64,000 nucleotides of DNA from Patescibacteria group bacterium (GTDB lineage: Bacteria; Patescibacteriota; Microgenomatia; UBA1400; PJMF01). Position 1 is the stretch's first letter. Each line of letters opens with the position of its first letter. The position numbers and the translations under genes were made by a program. A model generated the notes under the pieces. The model worked only from the letters and a program-made list of their open reading frames with translations, searched no databases and had not been told where the DNA came from. The stretch lies in contig BOKX01000001.1 in the NCBI GenBank assembly GCA_016861205.1, positions 456,539-520,538 on the forward strand, given 5' to 3'. Below, piece after piece: positions 7,053-47,364 of this stretch.

Positions 7053-8522
7053 ATGAAACCAACCTACTTTTTAAGCACCGCTATTCCTTACATCAACGCC
7101 AAGCCACACTTGGGACACGTGTTGGAGTGGATGCAAGCCGATGCTATGGCTCGCTACCAACGCCTCCTCGGCAAAGACGTGGTGTTCGTGTCTGGCTCTG
7201 ATGAAAATAGTTTGAAAAACGTCCGGGCCGCTGAAAAAGCCGGTGTTGATACCCAAGCTTGGCTTGATGAGTACGCAGCCGAGTTCAAAGCCGCCTACGC
7301 TGAGTTCGGGATTGAACTAGATGCCTTCCGACGCAGCAGTGACCAAACCCACCACTGGCCTGGCGTTCAAGAGCTGTGGCGACGGTGTGATGCCAGCGGG
7401 GCTATTTACAAAAAAACCTACCAAGGCTTGTACTGTGTGGGGTGCGAAGCTTTCTACACCCCTGACGAGCTCGTCGATGGTAAGTGTCCCGAACATCTGG
7501 TGGAGCCAGAAGTAGTGGAAGAGGAAAACTACTTTTTCAAGCTCTCAGCCTACCAAGACCAGATCAAAAGCCTGATTGAATCAAATGAACTGCGCATCAT
7601 TTCGGATCAGTTCCGACAAGAAATGTTGGGCTTTATCGACCAAGGACTCCAAGACTTTAGTATCTCCCGCTCTCAAGACCGCGCTCGGGGAGTTGGTGTC
7701 CCTGTCCCCAATGATGAAACCCAAGTCATGTACGTCTGGTTCGACGCCCTCGCTGTCTATATGACCTCGATCGGCTGGAACTTTGATGAAGCGAACTGGG
7801 GCCGCTACTGGCACCCAATCACCTCTGGTGCTGACCAAGACGAGATCGTGCATGTGATCGGCAAAGGCATCAATCGTTTCCATTCGGTGTACTGGATTGG
7901 CATGTTGTTGGCCGCCGGTTTACCAACCCCGACAACAGTCTCTGTCCATGGCTACATCACCGCCAACGGCCAAAAGATGAGCAAGAGTTTGGGCAACGTC
8001 ATTGACCCCTTTGAACTGGTGGCTCAGTACGGTCTGGAACCTGTACGTTACTATTTGCTCAAAGAAATCCCCACCCACAGTGATGGTGACTTTAACTATG
8101 ACAAGTTTGGCGAAGTCTACACCGCTGACTTGGCAAATGGCCTCGGCAACCTCTGTTCACGCGTCGCTAAACTGGCTGAAAAAGCTGGTGGCAACTGGGC
8201 GGCTTCACCCCAACTTGAGTTTGGGGCGGCTTTCAAAGACCAGCTGGCCGCTTGGCAACTCGACCACGCACTCAAATGGATCGTGGAACAGATCAGTCAA
8301 ACCGACCAGTTCTTGAGTGAAACGAAACCTTGGACCCAAACTGGTGAGGCTCAACGACAAACGTTGCAAACTGCCATTGACCGCATTCGAGTCATCGCGT
8401 TTCACCTGCAACCATTCCTGCCAGCCACTGCCGAAACCATCCTGCAGCACTTCGCTGGCCCCGAGTTACACGCGCTAACCCCACTCTTCCCGCGGTTAGC
8501 TGACCCAAAAGTCTCGAAGTAG
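7053..8522 (+). CDS. metG: methionyl-tRNA synthetase (short form, no C-terminal tRNA-binding extension)
   Basis: Class I HIGH-type motif region (PYINAKPHLGHVLE), a CxxC...CP zinc knuckle, and the KMSKS motif (GQKMSKSLGNV). TATAAT lies 8 nt upstream of the ATG. Confidence 0.92.
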   Translation: MKPTYFLSTAIPYINAKPHLGHVLEWMQADAMARYQRLLGKDVVFVSGSDENSLKNVRAAEKAGVDTQAWLDEYAAEFKAAYAEFGIELDAFRRSSDQTHHWPGVQELWRRCDASGAIYKKTYQGLYCVGCEAFYTPDELVDGKCPEHLVEPEVVEEENYFFKLSAYQDQIKSLIESNELRIISDQFRQEMLGFIDQGLQDFSISRSQDRARGVGVPVPNDETQVMYVWFDALAVYMTSIGWNFDEANWGRYWHPITSGADQDEIVHVIGKGINRFHSVYWIGMLLAAGLPTPTTVSVHGYITANGQKMSKSLGNVIDPFELVAQYGLEPVRYYLLKEIPTHSDGDFNYDKFGEVYTADLANGLGNLCSRVAKLAEKAGGNWAASPQLEFGAAFKDQLAAWQLDHALKWIVEQISQTDQFLSETKPWTQTGEAQRQTLQTAIDRIRVIAFHLQPFLPATAETILQHFAGPELHALTPLFPRLADPKVSK

Positions 8523-8529: not shown

Positions 8530-9339
8530 ATGCAGATCATTGATACCCACTGCCACTACAACTTAGAGCCACTTTGGCCAGAGTGGCAAAAACACTGGGT
8601 ATCTGCTCAAGCCAGCGGCGTTACGCACAGCGTGGTGGTCGGCACCAACGTAACCACTAGCCGGCAGGCTTTGGAGATTGCCGCCAGTGAAGCCAACCTC
8701 CGCGTGGCTGTCGGCATCCATCCGAGTGAGTACCAGGAGCAACTGGAAACACCAGCCACGTTTGATAATCAGCTGGTTTCTTTGTCTGAGATCGACACTT
8801 TGGCCAGCCAAGCCAAAGTGGTAGCAATCGGTGAAACCGGCCTCGACTACTATCGGCTGCCCGATGACCAAGCTCTCCAAACTCAAATCAAGGCTGCGCA
8901 ACAAGCGGCGTTTGAGGGTCACTTGGTGTTGGCCAAAAAACATGATTTACCAGTGATTGTGCATGTTCGTGACGTGGGAGAAGCGGCGTACTGGGACGTA
9001 CTGGCGTTGCTCAAAAAGCACTCACTCACCCAACCATTCATTCTGCACTGTGTCTCTGGTCCGATTGAGTATGTCAAACAAGCTCTTGATCTGGGTGCTT
9101 ACCTAGGTCTCGCGGGCAACCTGACGTACAAAACCGCCGACCACCTGCGATCGATTGCAAAAGTTGCCCCAGCCGACCGGCTGCTACTGGAAACAGATGC
9201 CCCATTTCTGCCACCAGTCCCGCATCGCGGCCAAACCTGTGAGCCATGGATGATCGCCAAAACGGCGCAGTTCTTGCAGACTGAACTCGGTCTCAACTTG
9301 GACCAACTACACGCTAATAGTCAATTTCTTCTGGATTAA
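8530..9339 (+). CDS. tatD: TatD-family metal-dependent DNase/hydrolase
   Basis: IDTHCH at the N-terminus and conserved His/Glu/Asp positions of the TatD TIM-barrel (GETGLDYY, VHVRD, ETDAPFL). Confidence 0.88.
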   Translation: MQIIDTHCHYNLEPLWPEWQKHWVSAQASGVTHSVVVGTNVTTSRQALEIAASEANLRVAVGIHPSEYQEQLETPATFDNQLVSLSEIDTLASQAKVVAIGETGLDYYRLPDDQALQTQIKAAQQAAFEGHLVLAKKHDLPVIVHVRDVGEAAYWDVLALLKKHSLTQPFILHCVSGPIEYVKQALDLGAYLGLAGNLTYKTADHLRSIAKVAPADRLLLETDAPFLPPVPHRGQTCEPWMIAKTAQFLQTELGLNLDQLHANSQFLLD

Positions 9340-9354: not shown

Positions 9355-10851
9355 ATGATCAAACGCTACGTTCGCCGCCACCCCATCCGTACTCAGCGTT
9401 TGCTCGAGATCTTACCTGGCTTTGTTTCGTGGTCATTGATTCTGTTTCCCGTCTGGGGTTCGATTTTATTTCCCGTAGCTGTGGCCTACTATGTGATCGC
9501 GTTCACGGTGTACTGGCTGTACCGATCGGCCACGTTGGCAGTTTTGTCTGTGATCGCTCACTATAAAATCAAAGCCGGTAGTTTGTTTGACTGGTTGAGT
9601 GACTTACAACAGACCTATCCCGAGCGCTGGCAAGACATTCATCACATCATTGTTATTCCCACCTATCAGGAACCCTTGAGTACGCTGCAACGCACACTGG
9701 ATGCTTTGAGCCAACAATCTTACCCACTGAAAAACCTGCACATCATGTTGTCATTTGAAGATCGTGAGGGTGACCCAGCTCGCGAAAAAGCTAAACAACT
9801 CAAGAAAGGCTATGGCCACTTGTTTGGTGACCTTTGGACTACGTACCACCCTGATATTGAAGGTGAGGTAAAAGGTAAGTCATCAAATACTTCCTGGGGA
9901 GCTAAACAGGCGAAACAGCACCTGGTTGATAAACAAGGGATGCCGATTGAGAACATCACCATCACCAGTGAAGATGCCGACGCGTTGTTTCACAAACACT
10001 ACTTTAGTGCCTTGACGTACAGTTTCTTAGGTGAAGCCAAACCGTTCAACCGAATCTGGCAGGGCGCGATCGTTTTCTACAACAACATCTGGAAAGTACC
10101 CGCTCCGGTCCGAGTCATGGCCTCGGTCTTTTCGGTGACGCAGATGTACATCCTGATGCGCAAGGACCGGCTAGTCAACTTCTCTACCTACTCGACTTCG
10201 CTCAAACACGTGCATGACATTGGTTACTGGGACACCGACGTGATCCCTGAAGACTACCGTCTGTTCTTCAAGTCGTACTTTGCCAAAAAAGGCGACTTTG
10301 AAGTTGAACCCATCTTCCTACCTATATATGCCGACGCTGCTGAGTCCGCCACCTGGCGAGCGACGCTGCACAATCAGTACCAACAACTCCAACGCTGGGC
10401 CTGGGGCGTCAGCGACGATGCCTACATTATTCGACAATATATTTTGACCGAAGGCGTTCCTTTCTGGGATAAAACCATTCGTGTCCTGAAAGTGATCGAA
10501 GACCACTTCTTGTGGCCGGTCAATTGGTTTGCGATCACTGTGTCCGCAGCTCTGCCACCGATCTTGAATGAGCAGTTCAGCCGCACCATTCTGGGCAAAA
10601 CCTTACCTCAAGTAACTTCCACCCTGTTAACGCTGTCACTCGTCTCGATGATGGTGCTGTTTGTAATTGACGCGATTAATCGACCGCCCCGCCCCAACAA
10701 GCGATCGGTCATTTCATATGTCAAACAGCCGCTGGAGTTCTTGCTGCTGCCAATTATTGGCTTCTTCTTCTCGGCCTTACCAGGCATCGATGCGCACACG
10801 CGGCTGATGTTTGGCAAGTACATTGAGTACCGAGTGACGGAGAAGGTTTGA
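9355..10851 (+). CDS. membrane-embedded family-2 glycosyltransferase
   Basis: N-terminal and C-terminal TM clusters flank a GT-A domain (IVIPTYQEP..., SEDAD acidic motif). Confidence 0.5.
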   Translation: MIKRYVRRHPIRTQRLLEILPGFVSWSLILFPVWGSILFPVAVAYYVIAFTVYWLYRSATLAVLSVIAHYKIKAGSLFDWLSDLQQTYPERWQDIHHIIVIPTYQEPLSTLQRTLDALSQQSYPLKNLHIMLSFEDREGDPAREKAKQLKKGYGHLFGDLWTTYHPDIEGEVKGKSSNTSWGAKQAKQHLVDKQGMPIENITITSEDADALFHKHYFSALTYSFLGEAKPFNRIWQGAIVFYNNIWKVPAPVRVMASVFSVTQMYILMRKDRLVNFSTYSTSLKHVHDIGYWDTDVIPEDYRLFFKSYFAKKGDFEVEPIFLPIYADAAESATWRATLHNQYQQLQRWAWGVSDDAYIIRQYILTEGVPFWDKTIRVLKVIEDHFLWPVNWFAITVSAALPPILNEQFSRTILGKTLPQVTSTLLTLSLVSMMVLFVIDAINRPPRPNKRSVISYVKQPLEFLLLPIIGFFFSALPGIDAHTRLMFGKYIEYRVTEKV

Positions 10852-10898
10852 TTTGGCATAATGGGAGAGTGTCACACTCACCTTCATCTCCCACTTTG

Positions 10899-12500
10899 AT
10901 GCAACGTCTGGACAGTTTTGTGAAACAACATTGGGGTTGGTGGAGCCTGCTCATCGCTGTGCTGCTCTTCCGTTTGCCAACCCTCTGTGAGCCATATTGG
11001 TACGGGGATGAAGGCATTTACTTGACCATCGGCAATGCTCTGCGACAAGGCAGGTTGTTGTACGCTGGCATCGTTGATCATAAAACCCCACTCATTTACT
11101 ACTTCGCCATGGTCCCCTCACAACTCTGGTTCCGCATCTTGATGATGGTGTGGATGATGGTGACGACTTGGTGTTTCTACCAATTAGTCTCGAGTTTTGG
11201 CTGGCGACGTTGGCAAACTTGGCTGAGTAGCTGGATCTTTATCTTACTCACATCACTTCCGGCTTTCGAGGGAAACATTCCCAATGGCGAGTTATTCGTG
11301 ATGGGGTTTGTGCTAGCTGGCTTACTACTTTTAACTCGCACCCGCCTGTGGCTCAATCTACTGGCTGATCCACGCCACGCCCGCTTACCCAGTCACTGGT
11401 CCAAACGTGATATCACCTTAACTGTGTTGGCCGGCATGAGTGGTGGTCTGGGCATTTTGACCAAAGTCCCTGGCTTATTTGATGTCGCAGCCATGGCCTG
11501 GGTCGGCTGGTTAGTACTCACTGCTGGAGTAGTTGACAAAGAGTTTAAAGCTCATGACTGGTGGCCACGACTCAAACTCGTCATAACGAGCTGGTGGTGG
11601 CTAGGATTAGGCATCGTCACTCCAATTGCTTTGAGTGTGCTCTACTTTACACTGCGTGGCAGCTTTGCAAGTTACCTCGAGTTTGGCTTACTTTACAACT
11701 TCCACTACGCCGGCAACTGGCAGCTCGATCTGCCATGGCCCTGGCTAGCTTTCTGGTTTACTTTGCCAGGCAAAATGCTGATTATGGCTGTTGGACTCCT
11801 GCTCGTCACAGCTTGGCAACGCTGGCAATCTCAGGCGTTGAGTTGGAGTTTGGGGTGGTTGTTGCTCGCCTTGTTCGGTTCTTTATTGTCAAATCGACCC
11901 TATCCCCATTACTTTTTACAACTCGTACCAGCACTCAGCATCGTGGTGGTTGCCTGGCTCGGTGAACTCACGCACTTGAAACAGTACCGTTACTTCCGCG
12001 ATAAAAGTCTCGTTCTGGTTGTCTGGCTGGCGACTGCCGCCCTCGTGGCGCTGATCCCGGTGTCGCTCTTGCTACTGAAATTTGGCATGTACCCTACCCT
12101 CAGCTACTACCAAAATTGGTGGCAAGTCGTCACTGGTCAAATCAGCCGCGAAACGTACTACCAACGCTTTAACTGGATCATTCCAGACAATACCCGTGCT
12201 GCCAACATTATTCGCTCGGCTGGAGCTCAAGAAATCTTTATCTGGGGCACTAACCCAATGCTCTACGCAGTTAGTCAGACTGCCCCAACTGGCCGATTCA
12301 CCGTGGCATTTCACATTAAAGATATCAATGCTTTTGACGAAACGATGCGTGACTTAGTCGCAGATCCACCATTGTTCGTGGTAGTTATGAATGAAGATGC
12401 CGAGACCTGGCCTGAAATGCAGACCTTTTTAACTGCTAACGCCTATCAACCAAACTATAGCTTTGAGCACTTTGTGCTGTGGAAGCGACCGAGTAACTAG
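10899..12500 (+). CDS. GT-C fold membrane glycosyltransferase (ArnT/PMT_2-like, polyprenyl-phosphate-sugar dependent)
   Basis: About 12 TM helices, with an early periplasmic-loop YWYGDEGIY motif typical of ArnT/PMT_2-family enzymes. A TTG at 10848 overlapping the upstream stop is an alternative start. Confidence 0.5.
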   Translation: MQRLDSFVKQHWGWWSLLIAVLLFRLPTLCEPYWYGDEGIYLTIGNALRQGRLLYAGIVDHKTPLIYYFAMVPSQLWFRILMMVWMMVTTWCFYQLVSSFGWRRWQTWLSSWIFILLTSLPAFEGNIPNGELFVMGFVLAGLLLLTRTRLWLNLLADPRHARLPSHWSKRDITLTVLAGMSGGLGILTKVPGLFDVAAMAWVGWLVLTAGVVDKEFKAHDWWPRLKLVITSWWWLGLGIVTPIALSVLYFTLRGSFASYLEFGLLYNFHYAGNWQLDLPWPWLAFWFTLPGKMLIMAVGLLLVTAWQRWQSQALSWSLGWLLLALFGSLLSNRPYPHYFLQLVPALSIVVVAWLGELTHLKQYRYFRDKSLVLVVWLATAALVALIPVSLLLLKFGMYPTLSYYQNWWQVVTGQISRETYYQRFNWIIPDNTRAANIIRSAGAQEIFIWGTNPMLYAVSQTAPTGRFTVAFHIKDINAFDETMRDLVADPPLFVVVMNEDAETWPEMQTFLTANAYQPNYSFEHFVLWKRPSN

Positions 12501-12572
12501 GTAACACTAGTCCTTCCTCGACAAGATCGAGTCGCTTATCCCATTGTCCAGCATTAACTGTATAATGAGGCC

Positions 12573-12923
12573 ATGACTAGCCAATCACGCCTCGTCATTC
12601 CGCGATTGCTGAAGGTGCCATTCTTACTAAGTTTCCTGATTAGTTCTGTTTTAACACTCCTGGTGCTTGTGGCGTACTTTCGAGTTCAACCACAAGTTCC
12701 ACTGTTCTACACGTTGGCACGACCAAGCCAGCAACTCGTCGCCAAAGAATGGCTTTTCCTGTTTCCGATTCTCTCGTTTGCCATCAGCCTGGTGCACTTG
12801 AGCATCGCACGCTGGTTGTATCCCCAGACTCGGGTCATTGTTCAATTGTTTAGCTGGATGACAGTGGCTATTCAAGTCACCTTAGCTTTAAGTCTCATTA
12901 GAGTGTTGGTAATCATTTCGTAA
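12573..12923 (+). CDS. small hydrophobic membrane protein, unknown function
   Basis: 116-aa ORF with 3 predicted TM helices, sitting 3 nt upstream of the WecA-like gene. TGTATAAT lies 4 nt upstream of the ATG. Confidence 0.35.
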   Translation: MTSQSRLVIPRLLKVPFLLSFLISSVLTLLVLVAYFRVQPQVPLFYTLARPSQQLVAKEWLFLFPILSFAISLVHLSIARWLYPQTRVIVQLFSWMTVAIQVTLALSLIRVLVIIS

Positions 12924-12926
12924 CCT

Positions 12927-13994
12927 ATGTGGCCATTTATTATTAGTTTTCTTATCAGCACCTTAGCGGCCCCGCTGGTGATTCAGTGGTATCGTCGTCG
13001 TCACTGGGTTGATGATCCAGCTACTCATCGACATGTCAAAGTCACTCACCAGCAACCGGTACCTCGGGGTGGTGGCCTGGTGGTCGCAGCTGGCATCGTG
13101 CTCACCAGCTTACTGTTACTGCCAATTGATTCGTACTTACTTGCCATCATGGCCAGCACAGTGTTGCTAACAGTGACAGGCATCTTAGATGATATTTATG
13201 ACATTCATCCTGGCTGGCGATTAGCCGCGGGTCTTTTGGCTGCTTTGATTGTAGTCGGGGCGGGAATTGGGATTGCCTATGTTTCAAACCCCTTTGGTCC
13301 AGGTGTGATCCACCTTGATCAACCAGTCTGGCAACTACAGATACTCGGAGAAACTCGCAGTGTTTGGGTGTTAGCCGACTTGTTTGCAATCGTCTTTATC
13401 GTTTGGAACATGAATATTGTGAACTGGTCAAAAGGGGTGGATGGACAGTTACCCGGATTTGTCGGCATCGCATTAGTGTTCGTTGGCATTTTGTCGTACC
13501 GATTCATTGACGATCCCACTAGCTTCAACACTGCCCATTTAGCATTCATTGTAGCCGGGGCTTTCTTTGGGCTGCTTGTCTGGAACTTTTACCCTCAGAA
13601 AATCATGCCAGGCTATGGGGCGGGATCGTTGGCCGGTTTTTATCTGAGCGTCTTAGCTATCCTGTCTGGGGCAAAAGTGGCAACTACGCTGATGGTTATT
13701 GCCATTCCCACTGCGGACGCCATTTTTACTATTGCCCGCCGTATTCGAGCCGGTAAGTCACCACTCTGGGGCGACCGCGGCCATCTGCACCACAAACTGA
13801 TGGACGTGCTGGGTTGGGGCAAACGCCGGGTGGCTGTTTTTTACTGGAGTGCTAGCTTAGTCCTTGGCATACTATCTTTGTATTTGAATACTATGGGAAA
13901 GCTGCTTACAATAGGCCTAACGTTTGCCATTGTCTTTGGGTTTTTGAGCTGGGCTAAGTGGGTGTCTGTTTATGGAAAACAAAAATCGACGTAA
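12927..13994 (+). CDS. polyprenyl-phosphate N-acetylhexosamine-1-phosphate transferase (WecA/TagO/MraY superfamily, GT4 family)
   Basis: About 10 TM helices. The MraY/WecA motifs are VPRGGGL, GILDDIYD (the DDxxD Mg site) and NxxNxxDGxDGL-like (NWSKGVDGQLPG). Confidence 0.8.
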   Translation: MWPFIISFLISTLAAPLVIQWYRRRHWVDDPATHRHVKVTHQQPVPRGGGLVVAAGIVLTSLLLLPIDSYLLAIMASTVLLTVTGILDDIYDIHPGWRLAAGLLAALIVVGAGIGIAYVSNPFGPGVIHLDQPVWQLQILGETRSVWVLADLFAIVFIVWNMNIVNWSKGVDGQLPGFVGIALVFVGILSYRFIDDPTSFNTAHLAFIVAGAFFGLLVWNFYPQKIMPGYGAGSLAGFYLSVLAILSGAKVATTLMVIAIPTADAIFTIARRIRAGKSPLWGDRGHLHHKLMDVLGWGKRRVAVFYWSASLVLGILSLYLNTMGKLLTIGLTFAIVFGFLSWAKWVSVYGKQKST

Positions 13995-14940
13995 CGAATC
14001 AGTCTTGATCGCCCTGCTGCGGACGGCACGCCCCCGGCAGTGGATCAAAAATTTGGCGTTGTATGCAGCGCTCGTGTTTTCTGGGTTATTTTTCTTTGAT
14101 CCTGTCGATGGCTGGCCCTACTTGGTAACAGTAACGTATGCGTTCGGCATTTTTTGTTTACTGACCTCATCGGTTTACATCATTAACGATATCATCGACC
14201 AAGAGGCCGACAGTCACCACCCATTCAAGCGTCATCGACCGATTGCTTCCGGATCATTACCAGTTCCAGTCGCTACATTTGCTGCCATCGCGATGTTGAC
14301 GGTCGTCTTTTTGATGTCGATGTGGCTGTCCGGATTTTTCCGACTATTAATCCTAACCTATCTGGTGCTGCAGTTCTTGTACGCCAAAACTACCAAACAC
14401 ATTCCCATCCTCGATGTTATCTCGATCGCCACAGGTTTCTTGATCCGCATTTATGCGGGCGCAGTGGTGGTCAACCTGCACATGAGCGTGTGGTTCTTGT
14501 TGACAGTCGTCTCAGCCTCACTCTTCTTAGCGGTCGGAAAACGCCAGAGTGAGCGAACACTGATGGCTGGCAAAGATGTGGGGGAAACGCGCAAATCACT
14601 CAAGCGCTATAGTCAACGTCTACTGGACCAGTACACGGGCATGTTTGCCAACGCGACTTGGCTCACCTATGCCTTGTTTACGTTTCAAAATGAAGTCGTT
14701 CGACCAGATGAACGGTTTGCTAATTTCTACACCATTCTGCCGCGAACACTACAGTCGCAAAAGTTGTTGATGTTAACTTTGCCGTTTGTGATTGTAGGAG
14801 TAATGCGCTATCTACAACTGGTCTACGAAGATAACGAAGGTGAATCACCTGAGCTAGTCATCATTCGAGATAAGGCTCTTTTGACAACTTGTTTTCTATT
14901 TGGTATTTCTGTCATGATAGTTATCTACTTCCTCACTTAG
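13972..14940 (+). CDS. UbiA-family prenyl-phosphate glycosyl/phosphoribosyl transferase resembling decaprenyl-phosphate phosphoribosyltransferase (DPPR synthase)
   Basis: RPRQWIKN at the N-terminus and the UbiA motif NDIIDQEADSHHPFKRHRPIASG (NDxxDxxxD plus HPxKRxRPIAxG), with 7-9 TM helices. Confidence 0.65.
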   Translation: MENKNRRNESVLIALLRTARPRQWIKNLALYAALVFSGLFFFDPVDGWPYLVTVTYAFGIFCLLTSSVYIINDIIDQEADSHHPFKRHRPIASGSLPVPVATFAAIAMLTVVFLMSMWLSGFFRLLILTYLVLQFLYAKTTKHIPILDVISIATGFLIRIYAGAVVVNLHMSVWFLLTVVSASLFLAVGKRQSERTLMAGKDVGETRKSLKRYSQRLLDQYTGMFANATWLTYALFTFQNEVVRPDERFANFYTILPRTLQSQKLLMLTLPFVIVGVMRYLQLVYEDNEGESPELVIIRDKALLTTCFLFGISVMIVIYFLT

Positions 14941-14946
14941 AAGCTT

Positions 14947-16464
14947 ATGCAACGCGTAAAAAGTTGGGCCACCCGCCACTACCTCGGACTACTAGTGATC
15001 ATTGTTGGCTTTAGTTTGCTGACACGTGTCATTCGGCTCGACCAACCACGAGATTACATCTTTGATGAGGTGTACCATGCCGTTACTGTTAAGTTGATTG
15101 CACGTAACGATGTTCGCGCCTATGAGTGGTGGAATCCACCAGTTGAACCTAACACGGCGGTCGACTGGCTTCACCCACCACTTGCTAAGTACACCCAAGC
15201 TGCGTTTGTTGTTTTACTCGGCGAAAATCCACTCGCGTGGCGTTTAAGTGCTGCCCTAACAGGTGTGATCGTCATCGTCTTAACCGCCAAGTTAGCCTAT
15301 CGTTGGTCAAATGACCATCTGGTCAGTCTCCTGGCCGCCGGCCTAGCTAGTCTTGATGGGTTGCTACTAGTTCAGTCCCGAATTGCTATGAATGATATTC
15401 ACGTCACAGCCGCTATCCTGGCTGCGATATGGTTGTACCTGGAGTTCAAGGCACGCCAGCCCGCTGGACAACTTCTTCCTCATGGCCGGCACACTTGGTA
15501 TTGGTGGTTAGCTAGCATCGCCATGGCAGGTGTCGCTATGGCCACCAAATGGTCGGGTTTATTTGCCGTGGTTTGGATTGCAGGCTGGGAAACCTGGCGT
15601 ACTCTTGATTGGTTAATTAAAACCACGCGACCGTCACGCTCCCTGTTTACCAAGTGGCTGACTATCTCGATCATCACCATTAGTTTCTTACCAATAACCA
15701 TCTATACTGCTGCCTACTCCCATATGTTTTTGCAGGGCAAAAGTTTAGTGTGCCGTGGTCAAGAAGTGGATCAAGGCAAGTGTTACTGTGATCAGACATC
15801 GTCGTGGTGGGTAACAGGCTTGAGCCGGGTGCTACCTGGGCAACGTTCAAACTTGGAAGCCCTCGAAAGTCGCGGCGGTTGCAAACGGCTGCTCTCACAC
15901 TTTAGCGAACTGCATAAACAAATCTGGTGGTACCAAACTAACTTAACTGCTACCCATGACTATCAGTCACGACCCTGGCAGTGGTTCTTTGACCTGAAAC
16001 CAGTTTGGTTCCACGTTAAGTATTATGAGGATGGTCGAATTGCAAACATCTATGCATTTGGCAATCCAGCCGTGATGTGGGGTGGCGTCGTTGCTGTGTT
16101 TGCCACTGTTGCTTTCTTAGTTCGAGAATTACCCAAACCTCGACTTTCTGGTGAGTGGTGGCAGTTGGCCACAATGTTGAGCGCCTACTTACTTGTTTGG
16201 CTACCTTGGCAGTTCTCTCCTCGAATCATGTTTTACTATCATTACACGCCAGCAGTGCCGCTACTGTGCATACTTCTGGCTTGGTGGTTACATCGGTTGA
16301 TGACTTGGCGCGTAGCTGCAAAACCAGTTGGCCGTTACATCATCGGCACGTACGTTGCCGCCTGTCTGCTTGCTTTTGTAGTGTGGTTCCCACACTGGAC
16401 TGGCTTACCTGTTAGCCCTGAGTGGATGAAACAAATCTACTTTGTGATTCCGAGTTGGAAATAA
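14947..16464 (+). CDS. PMT-family (GT39-like) polyprenyl-phosphate-mannose protein mannosyltransferase-like GT-C enzyme
   Basis: Multi-TM protein with an FDEVYHA loop-1 acidic motif (DE) characteristic of PMT/GT39 and a C-terminal membrane domain. Confidence 0.65.
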   Translation: MQRVKSWATRHYLGLLVIIVGFSLLTRVIRLDQPRDYIFDEVYHAVTVKLIARNDVRAYEWWNPPVEPNTAVDWLHPPLAKYTQAAFVVLLGENPLAWRLSAALTGVIVIVLTAKLAYRWSNDHLVSLLAAGLASLDGLLLVQSRIAMNDIHVTAAILAAIWLYLEFKARQPAGQLLPHGRHTWYWWLASIAMAGVAMATKWSGLFAVVWIAGWETWRTLDWLIKTTRPSRSLFTKWLTISIITISFLPITIYTAAYSHMFLQGKSLVCRGQEVDQGKCYCDQTSSWWVTGLSRVLPGQRSNLEALESRGGCKRLLSHFSELHKQIWWYQTNLTATHDYQSRPWQWFFDLKPVWFHVKYYEDGRIANIYAFGNPAVMWGGVVAVFATVAFLVRELPKPRLSGEWWQLATMLSAYLLVWLPWQFSPRIMFYYHYTPAVPLLCILLAWWLHRLMTWRVAAKPVGRYIIGTYVAACLLAFVVWFPHWTGLPVSPEWMKQIYFVIPSWK

Positions 16465-19781: not shown

Positions 19782-22700
19782 TTGAATACATCGCATTATA
19801 TTTCAACTGTGTCAGCCGGAACTTCCCCCCCACGAGCATTTCCCAAAATCGACATCATTATCCCGGTCAAGAATGAGGCGGCTAATTTGTCACCGCTGAT
19901 GGCGCGATTAGACACCAGTTTGCGAACAGCTCATATCAAGTATCAAGCCATCATTGTTGATGATCACTCCACCGATGATACTCGAGTAATTGCCAAAAAA
20001 TTAGCTCAAAAGTACCCGATAAAAGTCCTCACTAAAAAAGGCAAACCTGGAAAAGCCTACTCCATTCTCGAGGGAGCGAAAGCCGCTACCAGTGAGTGGC
20101 TAGTCATGATCGATGGTGACTTGCAGTACCCACCGGAAGCCATTCCTGACATGGTAAAACTGATTGACCAACACGGAGTGGTTGTCGCCCGTCGAATCAG
20201 TTATGAGGGCTCGCGACTCCGTCGACTTGGCAGCCGAGCAGTGGCTTGGTTCACCGGTCAGTTTCTACATGGAATTAAGGTCGACGTTCAATCAGGTCTG
20301 AAAATCTTTAAAAAAGATTTCTTGAATTACTTACCTGAAAATGAAGTGACCCCTTGGGCACTAGACCTGCCACTCTTACATGCAGCCCTAGAACTGGGTT
20401 ACACCTTGGGTGAAGTCGAGATTACTTTTGAAAAACGGATTCACGGTAGCTCGAAACTTAGCTTGCTAAAACCAACTTTCGAAATCGGCATGGCCGCTGT
20501 AAAACTTAAACTACGGTCAAGTCAACCGATCCCCATCCCGGCCCACAGTCACCAAAACATGATTGGTGCGGGATTAATTCACCGTCGACGCCAGTTTATT
20601 ACCCACAGCACACTTCACCACCGTCAAACCGCGCTCCACACTATTACTCGTAATCAACGCCGCTTGATTTTAGCAATTTTGGCCTCAGTGGCTGTTGGGA
20701 TCTTTTTGAATCCATTGGAAACGGCGATCGTGGTCGTAGCGTTTCTGAGTTTTGTGTACTTTGTAGATGTGATTTTCAACTTTTTCTTGATCCTGAAGAG
20801 CTTACACTCTCCACCAGAACTGGAGTTCTCAACAACTGAAATCAGCGAACTAAACGATAAAGACCTACCGATTTACACCATTCTTTGTCCGCTCTACAAA
20901 GAGGCTCACATTTTGCCTGGCTTCGTAGCAGCAATGGAGAAGCTTGACTGGCCAAAACACAAGCTCGACGTCATCCTGCTGTTTGAAGAAGACGACCTAG
21001 AAACGATCGAAACCGTTAAAACCATGAAGCTGCCCAAGCATTTCCGAGTTGCCATCGTGCCTGATTCACAACCCAAGACCAAACCGAAAGCGTGTAACTA
21101 TGGTCTCAACTTAGCAAAGGGTGAGTATGTCGTCATCTATGACGCTGAGGATATTCCTGAACCAGCTCAGCTCAAAAAAGCCTATCTAGGTTTTCAAACC
21201 GTTGGTCCAAAAGTGAAGTGTCTACAAGCTAAACTCAATTACTACAATCCAAACCAAAACTGGCTAACACGCTTTTTCACGGCTGAGTATTCACTCTGGT
21301 TTGATGTGATTCTGACTGGCTTGCAATCTATTGAGACTAACATTCCTTTAGGTGGCACCAGTAATCACTTCCGGACCACTGATTTACTCGCCCTCCAAGG
21401 TTGGGATCCATTCAACGTTACTGAAGACTGTGATCTCGGTATTCGTTTGTTCAAGGCAGGCAACAAAACGGCGATCATCGACTCAACCACATTGGAAGAA
21501 GCGAATAGCAACTTCAAAAACTGGATTCGCCAACGCTCCCGCTGGATTAAAGGGTACATGCAAACCTACTTAATCCACATGCGTCAGCCACAAGAGTTTG
21601 TGCGTACTCAGGGTTGGCACGCCCTCTTATTCCAGCTAACCATTGGTGGCAAACTCGCCTTCATTTTGATCAACCCCCTTCTGTGGGTCTTGACCATTTC
21701 TTACTTTGCGCTCTATGCCTATGTTGGGCCAACAATCGAGGCACTATACCCCAGCGTTGTGTTCTACATGGCTGTCACTTCACTTATTTTTGGTAACTTC
21801 ATGTTTATTTACTACTACATGATCGGCTGTGCCAAGCGAGAACACTGGGGCCTTATTAAGTGGGTATACCTAATTCCTTTCTACTGGCTGATGGTAAGTA
21901 TTGCCGGCGCCATCGCTTTGTATCAGTTGATTGTCAAACCACATTACTGGGAAAAAACGGTGCACGGGTTGCATTTGAAGAAAGCGAGTCTCGCCAAAAA
22001 AGCGAGTAAAGTTGCCAAAAAAACTACCCATCAGGTCATGGTTGAAGCCATCGCACAAGAGAAGCCAAGTATCACTGGTCGGCTGCACATTTTTGGATAC
22101 TCTGATTTCAAAAACAAGTGGCTGGAACGTTTAGAACTGAAGCATAAGTACGTTTCGTTAAAACGACTTGTTCACCAACTCTTGTTTGGCGAGTATCGGG
22201 GTGGTTTGTGGTTAGTGTTAGCTACTGTCATTGCGAACTTCCTCAATATGTTGACGAGCTTTTATCTCGGTCATGAACTAGAGTTTTCTGACTTTGCATT
22301 GATCAATACCTTTATAAGCTTACTCTATCTCTTGGGCATTTTAACAAGTTCACTCTCGGCGACTGTTAACCATCGCGCAGCGTTACTGCTCGGTAAGTTT
22401 AAGCAAAAAAGTGCACGTAACTTTTGGACACACGTTCAAAAAAGAGCAGTTATTGTGGCTATCTTGATGTCTCTTTTGTGGTTGGTGAACATTCCTTGGT
22501 TGACTAACTTCTTTAACATGAGTACCCCATTACCTCTCATCATTTTTACACCACTGATCTTCAGTGGTCTGCTAGGAGCAGTGAATGAGGGATACCTTCG
22601 TGGTCGTCTGCTGTTTGAAGTTTTGGCTATCACCACTTTGATCGACCCAATTGTCCGCTTGGGTCTCAGCTTGCTATTCGATGCGGTAAACCTGGAATAC

Positions 22701-24647
22701 TATATGTATGTACCCGTGATGATCTCCGCAATCACGGCTACAGTAATTGGTGGTTGGTACGCAGCCAAAGGCGACACTGGCGTTAAAATCATTAAAGAGT
22801 TTCGATTATCACTCCCATTCTTTAACACTGCGTTGATTTCCAAGTTATCTGCTATCGCGTTTTTTAGTCTCGACAACGTCATTGTGGCTCATTACCTCTC
22901 AACGGAAGAAACAGGTATGTATGGACTGCTGGGTTTGATCGGTAAAATGATTTTCTTTGCCGGGAGTTTGACGGTCGGATTTATTCTGCCGCTAGTTTCG
23001 CATAAAGAAGGTCAACATCAAAAAAGTGAAGCTGTCTTCCACAAACTGCTCCTCTTAACAGTCAGTTTAAGTTCTCTAGCATACATTGCGCTGGGCTTAG
23101 TCTTGCCGTCGATAGCTCCTTACTTCTTTGGCTTAAAACTGAATGCGATTAGAGGCTATCTGCCACTGTATGCACTTGGTATTTTGCTCTACACCATCTC
23201 CCAAACAGTTGTTCAATATCGGCTGGCAAAGCGATCTTACTTTTTCTCCATCGCCTCGTTTTTAGTAGCTATTATTCAGGTGGCAGGCTTGACCATTTAT
23301 CACAACTCACTGACTCAAATAGTGAATGTAATGTTTGTGAGTGGTTTACTCAATGCAGTTGTCCTATTTTCCTTGCATCACTGGTACCACAAAATTGAAG
23401 CCCCATTAAGTAATGTACGAGATTTTCTGGACTTATTTAATCCCATCCCACGTTTGACTCGACCTTTAGAGACCAAGGATCACTACCGGATTTTGATCCT
23501 TAACTGGCGAGATACCAAACATGCTTGGGCTGGCGGAGCCGAAAAGTACATCCACGAAGTCGCTACCCGGTTGGCCGCTGCTGGGCATAAAGTAACAATG
23601 TTTACGGGAAATGATGGCCATCATCCCCGCAACGAGGTTGTTGATGGTGTTCAAGTGGTCCGTCGTGGTGGTTTTTACACCGTGTACATTTGGGCATTCC
23701 TGTACTATGTCCTCCGGTTTAGACCATATGTTGACATCGTGATTGACTGTGAAAACGGCATCCCATTTCTCACACCCTTATATGTTCGCAAACCCATCTT
23801 GTTGCTGATTCATCACATTCACCAAGAAGTCTTTATGACTCACCTGCGGTTTCCTTTTTCCGAAATCGCCGCCCTGATTGAAAGTGACCTGATGCCATTT
23901 TTGTATAAGCACAAAACGCTGATCACGGTTTCCGAATCATCGAAAGATGAAATGATTGGGTTGGGACTAGGTAATACTCAAACGGTTAAGGTCGTTAACC
24001 CTGGCATCGACACCCACCTTTTCACTAAAAAACGAAAGACCAGCCAGCCATCGCTAGTGTACCTGGGCCGGCTGAAACCATACAAACAAATTGATGTGGC
24101 CATAAAAGCCTTTGCCAAAGTCATAGCTGATCATCCGACAGCCACGTTCACGATCGCTGGAAGTGGTGAGTCACTGGAATCACTTCAGCAACTCTGCCAA
24201 AAACTAGGCTTAACATCCCACGTGACGTTCAAACCCTCGGTAACTGACGAAGAAAAAGCCAAACTATTTGCTGAAAGTTGGGTGGCAGTGCAGCCATCAA
24301 CAATTGAAGGTTGGGGCATTACTGTCATTGAGGCAAATGCGGCAGGAACACCAGTAGTTGCATCTAATGTTAAGGGTCTTCGCGACTCTGTAGTTGATGG
24401 CAAAACAGGCATCCTGGTCAAAGCTGGGCAAGTCAGTGAGTTTGCTGCAGCAATCAACAAACTGTTTAGCAATACAAAATTCAGAGCATCACTGTCTCGT
24501 GAAGCCGTGAACTGGGCCAAACACTTTGATTGGAATGTTAGTTACAATAATTTTAATCACATACTCGATGAAACAATTCAGAAGCATCAAACCCATCACA
24601 ATAACGCCTATTCTAAGGAGGTCTATGACCAAAAAATCACTCGCTGA
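19782..24647 (+). CDS. 1621-aa multidomain polysaccharide synthase with four fused modules: a DPM1-like GT2, a processive-type GT2 with QxxRW, a Wzx/MOP-like flippase domain, and a GT4
   Basis: Residues about 20-230 form a GT2 domain (DIIIPVKNE...IIVDDHSTDDT...DGD). About 350-700 form a second GT2 (DAED, QRSRWIKG = Q(Q/R)xRW) with trailing TM helices. About 720-1180 form roughly 12 TM helices resembling polysaccharide-biosynthesis/Wzx flippases. About 1190-1610 form a GT4 domain (EGWGITVIEANAAGTPVVAS, E-x7-E motif). The start is TTG at 19782 or a downstream GTG. Confidence 0.7.
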   Translation: MNTSHYISTVSAGTSPPRAFPKIDIIIPVKNEAANLSPLMARLDTSLRTAHIKYQAIIVDDHSTDDTRVIAKKLAQKYPIKVLTKKGKPGKAYSILEGAKAATSEWLVMIDGDLQYPPEAIPDMVKLIDQHGVVVARRISYEGSRLRRLGSRAVAWFTGQFLHGIKVDVQSGLKIFKKDFLNYLPENEVTPWALDLPLLHAALELGYTLGEVEITFEKRIHGSSKLSLLKPTFEIGMAAVKLKLRSSQPIPIPAHSHQNMIGAGLIHRRRQFITHSTLHHRQTALHTITRNQRRLILAILASVAVGIFLNPLETAIVVVAFLSFVYFVDVIFNFFLILKSLHSPPELEFSTTEISELNDKDLPIYTILCPLYKEAHILPGFVAAMEKLDWPKHKLDVILLFEEDDLETIETVKTMKLPKHFRVAIVPDSQPKTKPKACNYGLNLAKGEYVVIYDAEDIPEPAQLKKAYLGFQTVGPKVKCLQAKLNYYNPNQNWLTRFFTAEYSLWFDVILTGLQSIETNIPLGGTSNHFRTTDLLALQGWDPFNVTEDCDLGIRLFKAGNKTAIIDSTTLEEANSNFKNWIRQRSRWIKGYMQTYLIHMRQPQEFVRTQGWHALLFQLTIGGKLAFILINPLLWVLTISYFALYAYVGPTIEALYPSVVFYMAVTSLIFGNFMFIYYYMIGCAKREHWGLIKWVYLIPFYWLMVSIAGAIALYQLIVKPHYWEKTVHGLHLKKASLAKKASKVAKKTTHQVMVEAIAQEKPSITGRLHIFGYSDFKNKWLERLELKHKYVSLKRLVHQLLFGEYRGGLWLVLATVIANFLNMLTSFYLGHELEFSDFALINTFISLLYLLGILTSSLSATVNHRAALLLGKFKQKSARNFWTHVQKRAVIVAILMSLLWLVNIPWLTNFFNMSTPLPLIIFTPLIFSGLLGAVNEGYLRGRLLFEVLAITTLIDPIVRLGLSLLFDAVNLEYYMYVPVMISAITATVIGGWYAAKGDTGVKIIKEFRLSLPFFNTALISKLSAIAFFSLDNVIVAHYLSTEETGMYGLLGLIGKMIFFAGSLTVGFILPLVSHKEGQHQKSEAVFHKLLLLTVSLSSLAYIALGLVLPSIAPYFFGLKLNAIRGYLPLYALGILLYTISQTVVQYRLAKRSYFFSIASFLVAIIQVAGLTIYHNSLTQIVNVMFVSGLLNAVVLFSLHHWYHKIEAPLSNVRDFLDLFNPIPRLTRPLETKDHYRILILNWRDTKHAWAGGAEKYIHEVATRLAAAGHKVTMFTGNDGHHPRNEVVDGVQVVRRGGFYTVYIWAFLYYVLRFRPYVDIVIDCENGIPFLTPLYVRKPILLLIHHIHQEVFMTHLRFPFSEIAALIESDLMPFLYKHKTLITVSESSKDEMIGLGLGNTQTVKVVNPGIDTHLFTKKRKTSQPSLVYLGRLKPYKQIDVAIKAFAKVIADHPTATFTIAGSGESLESLQQLCQKLGLTSHVTFKPSVTDEEKAKLFAESWVAVQPSTIEGWGITVIEANAAGTPVVASNVKGLRDSVVDGKTGILVKAGQVSEFAAAINKLFSNTKFRASLSREAVNWAKHFDWNVSYNNFNHILDETIQKHQTHHNNAYSKEVYDQKITR

Positions 24648-25350
24648 ACAAGCCAAAGATTTAGCAATCAAAATAGTGAGCCAACTTAGAGCTCCTATCA
24701 TGCGGGCAGTTAAACCAAACTCAAAGTATTGGCTTGCGACCCGATCACTGGAGCCACTCAGTATGAAGTTTGGCTTTGATCGGGGAACCCCAATTGACCG
24801 ATTTTGGATGAATGACTTTTTGACCAAAAATCAGAGCTTGATCAAAGGTCACTGCTTAGAAGTGACTGATGATGCATATCTCGTTCAGTACGGGGGTAAA
24901 AAGGTCACCAAAACGGATGTGCTTGACATCGACCGAAAAAATAAAAAAGCCACTATTTATGGTGACATCCAAAACTTAGACATGATCAAAGATGATACTT
25001 ACGACTGTATCATCCTCACTAATGTCTTGGGTATTATCCCAGACTACGAAGCCGCTGTCCGCGAGTGCCACCGCATTTTAAAACCAGGCGGAACTTTGCT
25101 GTTAACTGTCTCGTCGTTCAGTCCGACCCGTGACTTGGAGGCAAACTTGTGGCGCTTTACGGTCACCTCGGCCAAGTTTGTTTTTGGCAAGTATTTTTCA
25201 CCCAAAAAACTGGATATCCAGTCATATGGCAACGTCTTAACAGGGCAGTGTTTCTGGGTAGGAATGTCACAAGAAGAACTCACTCTTGAAGAGTTGTCGT
25301 ACCAAGATCCACGCTTCTCATGTTTGGTGGCGGTGAAGGCCACAAAGTAA
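24625..25350 (+). CDS. class I SAM-dependent methyltransferase-like protein (motif I degenerate)
   Basis: AAGGAGG lies 5 nt upstream of the ATG at 24625, which overlaps the upstream stop. Post-I, II and III motifs are present (DCIILTNVL, LKPGGTLLL) but the GxGxG motif is not obvious. Confidence 0.5.
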   Translation: MTKKSLAEQAKDLAIKIVSQLRAPIMRAVKPNSKYWLATRSLEPLSMKFGFDRGTPIDRFWMNDFLTKNQSLIKGHCLEVTDDAYLVQYGGKKVTKTDVLDIDRKNKKATIYGDIQNLDMIKDDTYDCIILTNVLGIIPDYEAAVRECHRILKPGGTLLLTVSSFSPTRDLEANLWRFTVTSAKFVFGKYFSPKKLDIQSYGNVLTGQCFWVGMSQEELTLEELSYQDPRFSCLVAVKATK

Positions 25351-25354
25351 AACT

Positions 25355-26278
25355 ATGTCTCGTGCTACTTGCCAGCCCACTATCTCAATCGGTATCCCTG
25401 CTTTTAACGAAGCTGCAAATATTAAGCAGTTGGTAGTAAGTTTGTTACGACAAAAGCAATCCGGTTTTACTGTGACCGAGATCATTGTGGCTTCAGATGG
25501 TAGTACTGATCAGACCGTTTCGATTTTAAAGAGTTTAAATGAGCCGAAAGTGGTGATTTTGGATAACAAAGATCGCAAAGGACAGGCGGCTCGTCAAAAT
25601 CAAATTCTCAAAAAAGTTTCCAGTGATGTGCTGGTGTTGATTAATGCCGATGTAGTCATCGATGATCCAAACTTTTTAACATGCATCGCGGAACCAATTT
25701 TGACTGCAAACGCAGATCTCGTTTCAACCTCGATTAGTACAGTTCCAAGCGAGACGTTCGTGGGTCAAACTCTTAACTACAGTTTAGAAATGAAGAACCG
25801 CGCCTTTGAAAGTTACCAGCATGGTCAAAATATCTATACCTGTCATGGTGCGGCAAGAGCCTTTTCCCGCAAACTGTATCGACACTTTGAGTTTCAGGCT
25901 AGTGTCGGTGAAGATGCCTACTCATACCTGTACTGCGTGATCAACGATTACAAGTATGTTTTCACCTCTCGAACTGTAGTCAAAATTAAGTCACCAGTCA
26001 CAATCAAGGATCACCAACATCAAAGCGTTCGATTCTTTCAAACTGATCGCAAACTCAAACAGTACTTTGCGACAAACGTTCTCCAAAAAGCCTATCACCT
26101 GCCGCTGCAGTTTATGATTGCGTCCTACAGTAAGTTCTTATGGACTCATCCACTACATGCCGGCGCCTATGGGCTGATAGTCATGTTCATGAAGTTGCAG
26201 TCATATCGGCTGGACTTAACAAGTAACACCTGGGCAATTGCTCACAGTTCAAAAAATAAACTAACGCCAACTATTTAG
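25355..26278 (+). CDS. family-2 glycosyltransferase (DPM/DPG-synthase-like)
   Basis: ISIGIPAFNEAANI...IIVASDGSTDQT...DADV, a GT-A fold with the DxD motif. Confidence 0.75.
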   Translation: MSRATCQPTISIGIPAFNEAANIKQLVVSLLRQKQSGFTVTEIIVASDGSTDQTVSILKSLNEPKVVILDNKDRKGQAARQNQILKKVSSDVLVLINADVVIDDPNFLTCIAEPILTANADLVSTSISTVPSETFVGQTLNYSLEMKNRAFESYQHGQNIYTCHGAARAFSRKLYRHFEFQASVGEDAYSYLYCVINDYKYVFTSRTVVKIKSPVTIKDHQHQSVRFFQTDRKLKQYFATNVLQKAYHLPLQFMIASYSKFLWTHPLHAGAYGLIVMFMKLQSYRLDLTSNTWAIAHSSKNKLTPTI

Positions 26279-26279
26279 T

Positions 26280-28285: not shown

Positions 28286-28287
28286 GT

Positions 28288-29883: not shown

Positions 29884-29884
29884 T

Positions 29885-31504: not shown

Positions 31505-31506
31505 TC

Positions 31507-32418: not shown

Positions 32419-32419
32419 T

Positions 32420-36106: not shown

Positions 36107-36412
36107 ATGCCTGAATACTTCCTGATTTTACTTTTTTTAGCGGTTTTTAGCATCACGTTACACCTCAAGTACAAGCTACAACTATTTCGTTCAAAGAGGC
36201 ACCGCTACGTTTTCTTTACAATTACATTTGTCGTTGGGATGATTTGGGATAGTTTGGCGATTACCCGTGGTCATTGGTCTTTTGGTGCAGACTATTTGCT
36301 GGGGATAAAAGGCGGTATTCTGCCGTTAGAGGAGTACTTCTTTTTTATTATTTTCCCGTATGCTCTGCTTGTTCTTTACAAGCTAACAGACAAAAAGTTA
36401 GCTCACCTCTAA
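36107..36412 (+). CDS. small membrane protein resembling the lycopene-cyclase-domain family (CrtYcd-like)
   Basis: About 100 aa with 3 TM helices and the pattern IWDSLAITRGHWSF...PLEEYFFF, similar to lycopene cyclase domain proteins. Confidence 0.4.
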   Translation: MPEYFLILLFLAVFSITLHLKYKLQLFRSKRHRYVFFTITFVVGMIWDSLAITRGHWSFGADYLLGIKGGILPLEEYFFFIIFPYALLVLYKLTDKKLAHL

Positions 36413-36419
36413 CTTCACC

Positions 36420-47360: not shown

Positions 47361-47364
47361 ACCC

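Follow-up and report, generated by a model that had tools for sequence, protein, structure and literature searches.

A 64-kb stretch of DNA from a Patescibacteria group bacterium—hereafter the window, meaning the whole stretch that was analysed—carries a row of co-directional glycan genes (9355–16464) that most likely form one operon, for a glycopolymer of the surface or wall. The uncultured organism was read as a small-genome member of the Patescibacteria (Microgenomates/OP11-type). One of the genes encodes a UbiA-family protein that is, judging from its sequence, very probably a polyprenyl-phosphate 5-phosphoribosyltransferase (PPPRS, also DPPRS). On balance, and with slightly better than even confidence, we read the operon as encoding a synthase-dependent surface glycan that would be pentofuranosylated outside the cell. 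Over 160 related loci, the conserved core consists of a GT2 enzyme that resembles hyaluronan synthase (HAS) and cellulose synthase, a WecA/MraY-type enzyme, and the UbiA protein; the extracytoplasmic transferase differs between clades. The genes of the operon are separated by a few bases or overlap:

9355–10851, + strand: membrane-integrated processive GT2 synthase, HAS/BcsA type; 498-aa open reading frame (ORF) with transmembrane helices at both ends
10899–12500, + strand: glycosyltransferase of GT-C fold, with a distant likeness to PMT/ArnT; 533 aa counted from the ATG at 10899 (10848 is the start of the mechanical ORF)
12573–12923, + strand: 116-aa membrane protein with three predicted transmembrane helices; Q39, P43, P65, and R110 invariant
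12927–13994, + strand: divergent PNPT-superfamily enzyme (Pfam Glycos_transf_4, PF00953; 6.5e-20, 72 bits); 355 aa
13972–14940, + strand: UbiA ORF, probable PPPRS/DPPRS; 322 aa, single domain, Pfam UbiA 4.8e-18
14947–16464, + strand: PMT/GT39-like GT-C protein without MIR domains; 505 aa, Pfam PMT 81.1 and PMT_4TMC 81.2 bits (~1e-22), above the gathering score

Window proteins were scanned against Pfam and NCBIfam, folds were modelled with AlphaFold 2 (AF2), and structural neighbours were sought with Foldseek against the PDB. The UbiA protein scores 229.5 bits with the NCBIfam equivalog for decaprenyl-phosphate phosphoribosyltransferase, NF008978 (cut-off 207), and 217 bits with NF008977, under the cut-off of 234. 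The best UbiA-type model other than DPPRS reaches 43 bits, a value that none of the quinone, heme-O, chlorophyll, and ether-lipid prenyltransferase models exceeds. Its PDB matches are solely the two cryo-EM entries of Rv3806c from Mycobacterium tuberculosis (8j8j, 7e-36; 8j8k, 3e-26). The roles of the substrate-binding residues of Rv3806c have been described by Gao et al. (PMC10994848), who also found K28, Y70, and Q135 to be phosphoribosyl-transferase-specific and not conserved in the rest of the UbiA superfamily. These three are kept in the window protein as K26, Y69, and Q134. More broadly, R20, K26, Y69, N72, D76, and K86 map onto R22, K28, Y70, N73, D77, and K87 of Rv3806c, and R89, Q134, Y137, K142, K190, and K208 onto R90, Q135, Y138, K143, K191, and K208. 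The mapped contacts cover pyrophosphate, Mg2+, the ribose hydroxyls, the 5′-phosphate, and the lipid phosphate; every one of them is kept, and nearly all are invariant among 81 orthologs. At the position of Rv3806c Y157—where the family allows Y or F—the protein has F156. The N-D-x-x-D-x-x-x-D motif for Mg2+ and pyrophosphate is given by N72, D73, D76, and D80, and the lysine/arginine cluster that holds the pyrophosphate of phosphoribosyl pyrophosphate (PRPP; Rv3806c R22, K87, R90, K143, and K208) is matched by R20, K86, R89, K142, and K208.

An earlier note on this DNA had likened the UbiA protein to DPPR synthases by the motifs RPRQWIKN and NDIIDQEADSHHPFKRHRPIASG, both of which are found in the translated ORF. 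Because the model scores, the Rv3806c matches, and the kept binding residues point the same way, this assignment stands at the sequence level: the protein groups with DPPR/PPPR synthases and not with archaeal lipid synthases, and neither profile scores nor residues place it with MenA or UbiA. That it is instead an ordinary aromatic/quinone or ether-lipid prenyltransferase appears extremely unlikely. Its Pfam match is to the generic UbiA family, and many orthologs are labelled ‘4-hydroxybenzoate polyprenyltransferase’ by JGI; however, the NCBIfam models of UbiA, MenA, heme-O, and GGGP type stay at 43 bits or less against 229 for DPPRS, the phosphoribose-specific residues are kept, and the gene is located within a glycan operon.

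Such an enzyme outside the mycolata had been called unusual in the same note, which is no longer tenable given the homologues in Citrobacter youngae, Pseudomonas aeruginosa, Gram-positive bacteria, and a phage, and the hits in Patescibacteria. The window gene has 2362 database hits, with more than 120 clusters at least 69% identical, and in Patescibacteria many of these proteins already go by the name DPPR synthase; thousands of Patescibacteria carry a PPPRS gene. Kelly et al. (PNAS 2024, PMC11127046) have shown biochemically that the Rv3806c homologue of C. youngae makes polyprenyl-P-ribofuranose from PRPP. They described ‘three-component systems’ of PPPRS, flippase, and GT-C enzyme, which add ribofuranose, xylofuranose, or arabinofuranose outside the cytoplasm and put pentofuranose side chains on finished glycans, with bioinformatic candidates in Gram-negatives, Gram-positives, and one phage. 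The same enzyme was proposed for the arabinofuranose pathway of P. aeruginosa pilin (PMC11127046). Our literature searches found no published description of a PPPRS system in Patescibacteria or the candidate phyla radiation (CPR); a preprint on the Lipocone superfamily mentions UbiA and Patescibacteria in unrelated contexts only. The UbiA enzyme itself is hence a further member of a known family, and what is new is the architecture of the operon—a HAS-like synthase, a split PNPT enzyme without a catalytic carboxylate, and PPPRS, with or without a PMT-fold GT-C enzyme, and without a linked flippase or phosphatase.

This architecture was traced through two sets of loci. The first set comprises 80 species-level related loci (L007–L086), found via the UbiA protein at 58–83% UbiA identity, from Patescibacteria of Pacebacteria, Woesebacteria, and Microgenomates (OP11) type; all of its ORFs were clustered, and neighbour counts were normalised for contig ends such that each denominator gives the loci with enough flank. 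Many of its records of metagenome-assembled genomes are titled ‘uncultured Pseudomonadales bacterium’ or ‘Vitreimonas sp.’ despite synteny of the Patescibacteria type, and are probably mislabelled or mis-binned submissions. The second set comprises 80 distant metagenome loci (L089–L168), picked by fused forms of the PNPT enzyme, whose UbiA proteins are ~40% identical to that of the window.

Within the first set, the PNPT gene lies beside UbiA in 75/75 loci, and the two reading frames overlap in 54/76; in the window, the 3′ end of the PNPT gene overlaps the UbiA start by 23 nt. Conservation is also high upstream, where the GT-C gene (as 550-aa ORF 10848–12500) is present in 58 of 61 loci, the separate 116-aa gene in 62 of 71, and the synthase gene in 53 of 58. 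The PMT-like gene follows UbiA in 41 of 70 loci and is the least conserved member; where it is missing, housekeeping genes come next after UbiA. PNPT, UbiA, and PMT had been proposed as a trio, and the three ORFs are indeed adjacent and all on the + strand, with Pfam matches to Glycos_transf_4, UbiA, and PMT. As a unit, however, the trio does not hold, since its tighter partners—GT-C, 116-aa protein, and synthase—lie upstream; an element reaching from 12927 to 16464 cuts the conserved module on the wrong side.

In the second set, a HAS-like synthase gene is found directly upstream of the PNPT gene in 57/63 loci, and a UbiA gene at most 1.5 kb downstream of it in 40/51, with all PPPRS residues kept. 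The PNPT enzyme is fused to its N-terminal module in 75 of these 80 loci, and a GT-C gene is linked in just two of them. Since the order synthase–PNPT–UbiA is kept with the GT-C gene so rarely linked, the deep core of the system is the synthase, the PNPT enzyme, and PPPRS. In the clade of the window, the PMT/ArnT-fold GT-C enzyme (10899–12500) sits within the conserved block. In the second set, 34 loci, against none in the first, have a following gene for a Wzy_C (O-antigen-ligase-like) protein. An OmpR-type response regulator is often encoded between PNPT and UbiA in the second set, and a PEGA/SH3 protein comes after UbiA together with the Wzy_C/O-antigen-ligase-like gene (e.g., L118:3316–3984 and L118:5882–7186).

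The synthase is the best-conserved gene of the block, its top 120 clusters all being at least 75% identical. The window protein matches Pfam Glyco_trans_2_3 weakly (2.7e-4, 21.3 bits against a gathering score of 27), and many of its orthologs have precomputed PF13632. Its AF2 model (pLDDT 82.5) finds Chlorella virus HAS as top Foldseek PDB neighbour (8e-10, TM-score 0.55–0.58 over the full length), together with BcsA and Xenopus HAS1. The DxD, ED, and QxxRW motifs—D207xD209, P-E299-D300, and Q344xxR347W348—are invariant in 52 sequences. Based on this model and these motifs, we propose that the protein is a processive polymerase-exporter and might polymerise the backbone of the glycan. Sequence-profile searches of the PDB gave nothing meaningful for the families of the synthase, the GT-C ORF at 10848, and the 116-aa protein.

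Fold modelling was likewise informative for the GT-C enzyme at 10899, which has no Pfam match of its own. Its AF2 model, built with 67 homologues, reaches a pLDDT of 94.1, and its top 26 Foldseek PDB neighbours are all GT-C enzymes—among them AglB (1e-6), ArnT (5f15, 3e-6, TM-score 0.52), STT3, Pmt4, ALG3, EmbB, and PimE. The loop-1 motif E-P-Y-W-Y-G-D37-E38 after the first helix is invariant in 68 sequences, and an alpha/beta extracytoplasmic domain forms the C terminus. Three orthologs (P0221, P0228, and P0163) exceed the Pfam PMT gathering score. We propose this protein as the pentofuranosyltransferase.

The PMT-like protein at the operon end resembles yeast Pmt1 (6p25, 7e-12) and keeps its loop-1 pair D40-E41 among 46 orthologs; with the bacterial Pmt equivalog NF058602, it scores 70 bits (cut-off 800). 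It appears to be a clade-variable accessory transferase, with polyprenyl-P-pentose or polyprenyl-P-hexose as candidate donors. Loop-1 acidic residues, on which the GT-C claim had been made to depend, are thus present in both verified GT-C enzymes. The earlier note had counted seven GT-C paralogs in the window: 14947 (PMT family) and 10899 (GT-C fold) hold up, and the other five were not verified. Of these, the proteins at 28216 and 29885 match the NCBIfam LA_3751/3752 ‘putative glycosyltransferase’ models weakly (9e-11 and 4e-4), far under the cut-off. The proteins at 59369, 60878, and 62640 are polytopic membrane proteins for which Pfam, NCBIfam, and the precomputed annotation gave nothing; for 59369 and 60878, the PDB sequence search was negative too, and 60878 and 62640 are mutual paralogs (1e-16). 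Run against the other claimed GT-C proteins, a local hidden Markov model (HMM) of the GT-C family gave a single 8-bit hit, to 60878, which was rejected as evidence. With hhalign, the GT-C family profile gave probabilities of ~1% or less, too low to be informative, against the single sequences of the PMT ORF, 28216, and 29885.

The PNPT enzyme, which we propose to be the primer-forming phosphoglycosyl transferase, had been described as WecA-like. Membership in the WecA/MraY superfamily is borne out; within it, however, the protein belongs to a separate branch without the metal-binding carboxylate and scores far under the cut-off for WecA (TIGR02380, 73 bits against 326; MraY TIGR00445, 44 bits against 192). 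It keeps D88-D89, N163/N166, and H286-x-H288-H289, of which D88, D89, H286, H288, and H289 are invariant. The equally invariant Y230 of the motif ‘PGYGxGSL’ aligns on a conserved Asp of MraY (5jnq, 9zno) and human GPT (6bw6). The Asp at this column—MraY D265 or GPT D252—coordinates Mg2+ and is essential in both enzymes. A second motif reads ‘NxxNWSKGVDGQ’ in place of ‘NxxNxxDGxDGL’.

An exhaustive search of 1.84 billion representatives for the PNPT family placed these changes among the relatives. The nearest ones share F or Y at the acid column (G(F/Y)G) together with ‘WS(N/K)GVDGQ’; at a greater distance, the canonical ‘G(D/E)xGS’ and ‘DGxDGL’ are found, and in ‘PGDSGS’ intermediates the Y230 column is D. 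Some relatives with canonical DGxDGL carry T, S, or N at this column. Because such canonical-looking proteins lack the acid as well, its loss alone is no proof of a new reaction, and a reading of the PNPT enzyme as inactive owing to the missing Asp was softened on the same grounds. The subfamily (representatives P0361–P0510) spans 206 clusters at E ≤ 1e-30.

The 116-aa protein, which has no Pfam, NCBIfam, or credible PDB match, finds its explanation in the same family. Many PNPT representatives are 470–520 aa long and bear an N-terminal extension of ~130 aa, and the HMM of the 116-aa family hits residues ~10–125 of 27/150 representatives of this length (E 1e-16 to 1e-6). Since its HMM matches the extension of long PNPT enzymes, the 116-aa ORF represents a detached N-terminal module. 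A GtrA/Rv3789-like (SMR) or MATE-type flippase was considered for this protein and rejected, as it is fused to the PNPT enzyme in other lineages.

The favoured pathway can be laid out in four steps. As predicted from its sequence, PPPRS would transfer phosphoribose at the cytoplasmic face, converting PRPP and polyprenyl-P to polyprenyl-P-beta-D-ribofuranose-5-P and pyrophosphate. The 5′-phosphate would then be removed and the lipid-linked ribofuranose flipped, by proteins that are not encoded in the operon. Outside the membrane, the GT-C enzyme (10899–12500) might use polyprenyl-P-ribofuranose to pentofuranosylate an acceptor, and in the clade of the window the PMT-like protein (14947–16464) possibly uses this donor as well. 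The acceptor would be the polysaccharide extended and exported by the synthase (9355–10851), probably primed on polyprenyl-P by the split PNPT enzyme (12573–12923 together with 12927–13994). The suggestion of the earlier note that a lipid-linked donor feeds outer-face GT-C enzymes fares well in this pathway: its pentose version is the most economical reading, and both verified GT-C enzymes carry the loop-1 acidic pair. Ribofuranose, and not arabinofuranose, is the default sugar, as neither DprE1/DprE2 nor any other epimerase is linked. The absence of DprE1/DprE2 genes from the window, noted before, is confirmed: no FAD_binding_4 or adh_short domain occurs among the window genes scanned or with precomputed Pfam hits, and the annotated recurrent neighbour clusters of the 160 related loci contain no epimerase. 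The Wzy_C gene of the second set is in keeping with extracellular ligation of a polymer linked to polyprenyl-PP.

Several observations weigh against this pathway. Neither a HAD or PAP2 5′-phosphatase nor a MATE, GtrA, or SMR flippase is found in the window genes or the conserved neighbourhoods. With the GT-C gene unlinked in the second set (2/80), the link from donor to GT-C enzyme rests on the window’s own clade. The PNPT enzyme, which is without the Mg-binding carboxylate, may follow a non-canonical chemistry, and synthases of the HAS type need not start from a lipid primer. Epimerase genes might be located elsewhere in the ~1.15-Mb genome, and we know of no glycan structure for any member of the Patescibacteria.

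With such distant epimerases, the product of PPPRS might be epimerised by DprE1/DprE2-like enzymes and transferred as D-arabinofuranose, giving an arabinan-type glycan. The same first enzyme does feed arabinofuranose in mycobacteria and in the proposed pilin pathway of P. aeruginosa, but the candidate systems surveyed by Kelly et al. held epimerase genes within the system itself (PMC11127046). An FAD_binding_4/SDR pair is found neither among the scanned or precomputed-Pfam window genes nor among the annotated neighbour clusters of the 160 loci, which makes an arabinan rather improbable. A little less improbable, though still unlikely, is that the operon combines two independent pathways, in which the polymer stays undecorated and PPPRS feeds the PMT-like or other GT-C enzymes for a TfpW-like O-pentosylation of proteins. 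Patescibacteria rely on pili and surface proteins, O-glycosylation of proteins with PPPRS-derived arabinofuranose has been proposed in P. aeruginosa, and a PMT-family gene comes after UbiA in 41/70 loci. That gene is, however, the least conserved member of the operon, and the order synthase–PNPT–UbiA is kept down to ~40% UbiA identity with overlapping frames, which is hard to understand without functional coupling.

The coupling of PNPT and UbiA also allows for a more radical proposal, in which the PNPT enzyme uses the very product of PPPRS as its substrate—for instance, with the 5′-phosphate of polyprenyl-P-ribose-5-P accepting a sugar-1-phosphate—and thereby forms a new type of lipid-linked primer for the synthase. 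Used in this way, the ribose-phosphate lipid would need no phosphatase, and indeed none is linked in any of the 160 loci. The invariant adjacency of the translationally overlapped PNPT and UbiA genes, the loss of the acid along with the altered NxxNxxDGxDG motif in the nearest relatives, and the shallow partnership of the GT-C enzyme point in the same direction. Yet the proposal is inferential throughout and without precedent, the PNPT enzyme retains its DD and HxHH motifs, and T, S, or N occurs at the acid column in relatives with canonical DGxDGL as well; we regard it as very unlikely. Hardly more probable is the boldest generalisation, by which the Microgenomates-type organisms and a distant uncultured lineage would have a core envelope pathway in common, possibly an essential one, with synthase, carboxylate-less PNPT enzyme (split or fused), and PPPRS as one unit and the PNPT enzyme working on polyprenyl-P-ribose-5-P. 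If true, this would explain the lack of a linked phosphatase and reveal a ribose-phosphate lipid, previously unknown, that primes a wall polysaccharide or serves as its linkage unit.

Read as a pentofuranosylated, synthase-dependent glycan, the operon can be compared with systems of known function. The closest parallel is the three-component system of C. youngae O1/O2, which consists of the PPPRS ORF15, the MATE flippase ORF14, and the GT-C enzyme ORF12 of family GT136 (PMC11127046). Both share a UbiA-family PPPRS that uses PRPP, an adjacently encoded GT-C enzyme that acts outside the membrane, the addition of a sugar to a finished or nascent polysaccharide, and epimerases as an optional part. 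The window, however, lacks a fused HAD phosphatase domain, a separate phosphatase, and a MATE, GtrA, or SMR flippase; its GT-C enzyme is PMT/ArnT-like by fold; and its PPPRS shares a conserved operon with a synthase of HAS type and a PNPT enzyme that is divergent and split—in a phylum that lay outside the study by Kelly et al.

The decaprenyl-phospho-arabinose and arabinogalactan pathway of mycobacteria (UbiA-family Rv3806c, Rv3807c, DprE1/E2, Rv3789, WecA, GlfT2, AftA/Emb) has substrate residues of the Rv3806c type and the logic of PNPT initiator, GT2 polymerase, lipid-linked pentofuranose, and GT-C enzyme in common with the window. The PPPRS gene near a GT2 polymerase gene is a further likeness to M. 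tuberculosis, where the two lie near each other as well. In contrast to mycobacteria, the window has no linked gene for DprE1/E2, a PAP2 phosphatase, or the GtrA-like Rv3789, the polymerase is a membrane channel of the HAS/BcsA type and not GlfT2, the PNPT enzyme has no catalytic-site carboxylate, and the lipid is presumably C55 instead of C50.

The synthase-dependent O-antigen O:54 of Salmonella enterica is made by WecA, the WbbE/WbbF synthase, and the ligase WaaL. A PNPT initiator combined with a HAS-like processive GT2 enzyme is found here too, and the loci of the second set have a downstream gene for a ligase of Wzy_C/WaaL type, whose position is filled by GT-C enzymes in the clade of the window. 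Unlike in O:54, PPPRS is an invariant third partner, and the organisms are presumably monoderm and without lipid A. Finally, the protein at 14947 shares PMT and PMT_4TMC domains, the loop-1 Asp-Glu, and the lack of MIR domains with bacterial GT39 Pmt proteins such as Rv1002c of M. tuberculosis and Streptomyces Pmt, but differs in its score (70 against 800 bits) and in having no clear polyprenyl-P-mannose synthase adjacent. Its position next to PPPRS suggests a donor other than polyprenyl-P-mannose.

Upstream of the glycan genes, in conserved order and tightly packed, lie two genes identified by Pfam and NCBIfam:

7053–8522, + strand: MetRS
8530–9339, + strand: TatD-family hydrolase

In the first set, TatD is present in 48/56 and MetRS in 45/53 loci, and TatD is found upstream in the second set too. 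Both are probably housekeeping genes in a shared transcription unit and stand outside the pathway. A promoter and terminator scan gave no excess over shuffles.

The window also holds a second glycan cluster (19782–33652). It encodes a 1621-aa protein in which two GT2 domains are fused to a GT4 domain, a methyltransferase, a GT2 protein, a PgaB/IcaB-like polysaccharide deacetylase, an Agl16-like GT4 protein, two polytopic membrane proteins (those with the weak LA_3751/3752 matches), a D-2-hydroxyacid dehydrogenase, and a CarboxypepD_reg-domain protein. GT2 domains of this cluster had been called DPM1-like, which holds only loosely: in the 1621-aa ORF, the N-terminal domain alone resembles polyprenyl-P-sugar synthases of the ArnC/AglJ/PgfS type, and the protein at 25355 is a generic GT2 with a PgaC-like best match. 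At the right edge (59369–63995), three unannotated polytopic membrane proteins are encoded in tandem, the third of which is cut by the window end and measures 547 aa in contig L169. Past the window end, L169:11270–21245 carries a 492-aa ORF and four GT2/GT4 genes as a third glycan locus. A region of low GC content (36400–40300; 33–36% against ~49%) encodes an 892-aa ORF (36990–39668, − strand) with an Mrr_cat restriction-endonuclease domain and an nSTAND1 NTPase, adjoined by tRNA-Pro(GGG) at 40210–40284. The strain-variant contig L087 of the same species is without the 892-aa gene, and the region gives the impression of a tRNA-associated defence island that varies between strains. On the − strand, 46332–50045 holds genes for a FemAB-family transferase, a DegT/DnrJ/EryC1 aminotransferase, and Mur-ligase-domain proteins in a row, which may be a set for the modification of peptidoglycan stem peptides or cross-bridges.

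The operon overturns no current concept; it would carry the recently defined paradigm of pentofuranosylation into a further phylum and give it a new architecture. It also draws attention to a PNPT subfamily, as yet uncharacterised, that lacks the metal-binding carboxylate and whose module of three transmembrane helices is either split off or fused. The envelope glycans of CPR bacteria are almost uncharted, although the host-attached Patescibacteria account for a large part of the diversity of bacteria. For these organisms, the operon next to metG–tatD gives a testable prediction—a surface polysaccharide decorated with ribofuranose—and a set of genes to express.

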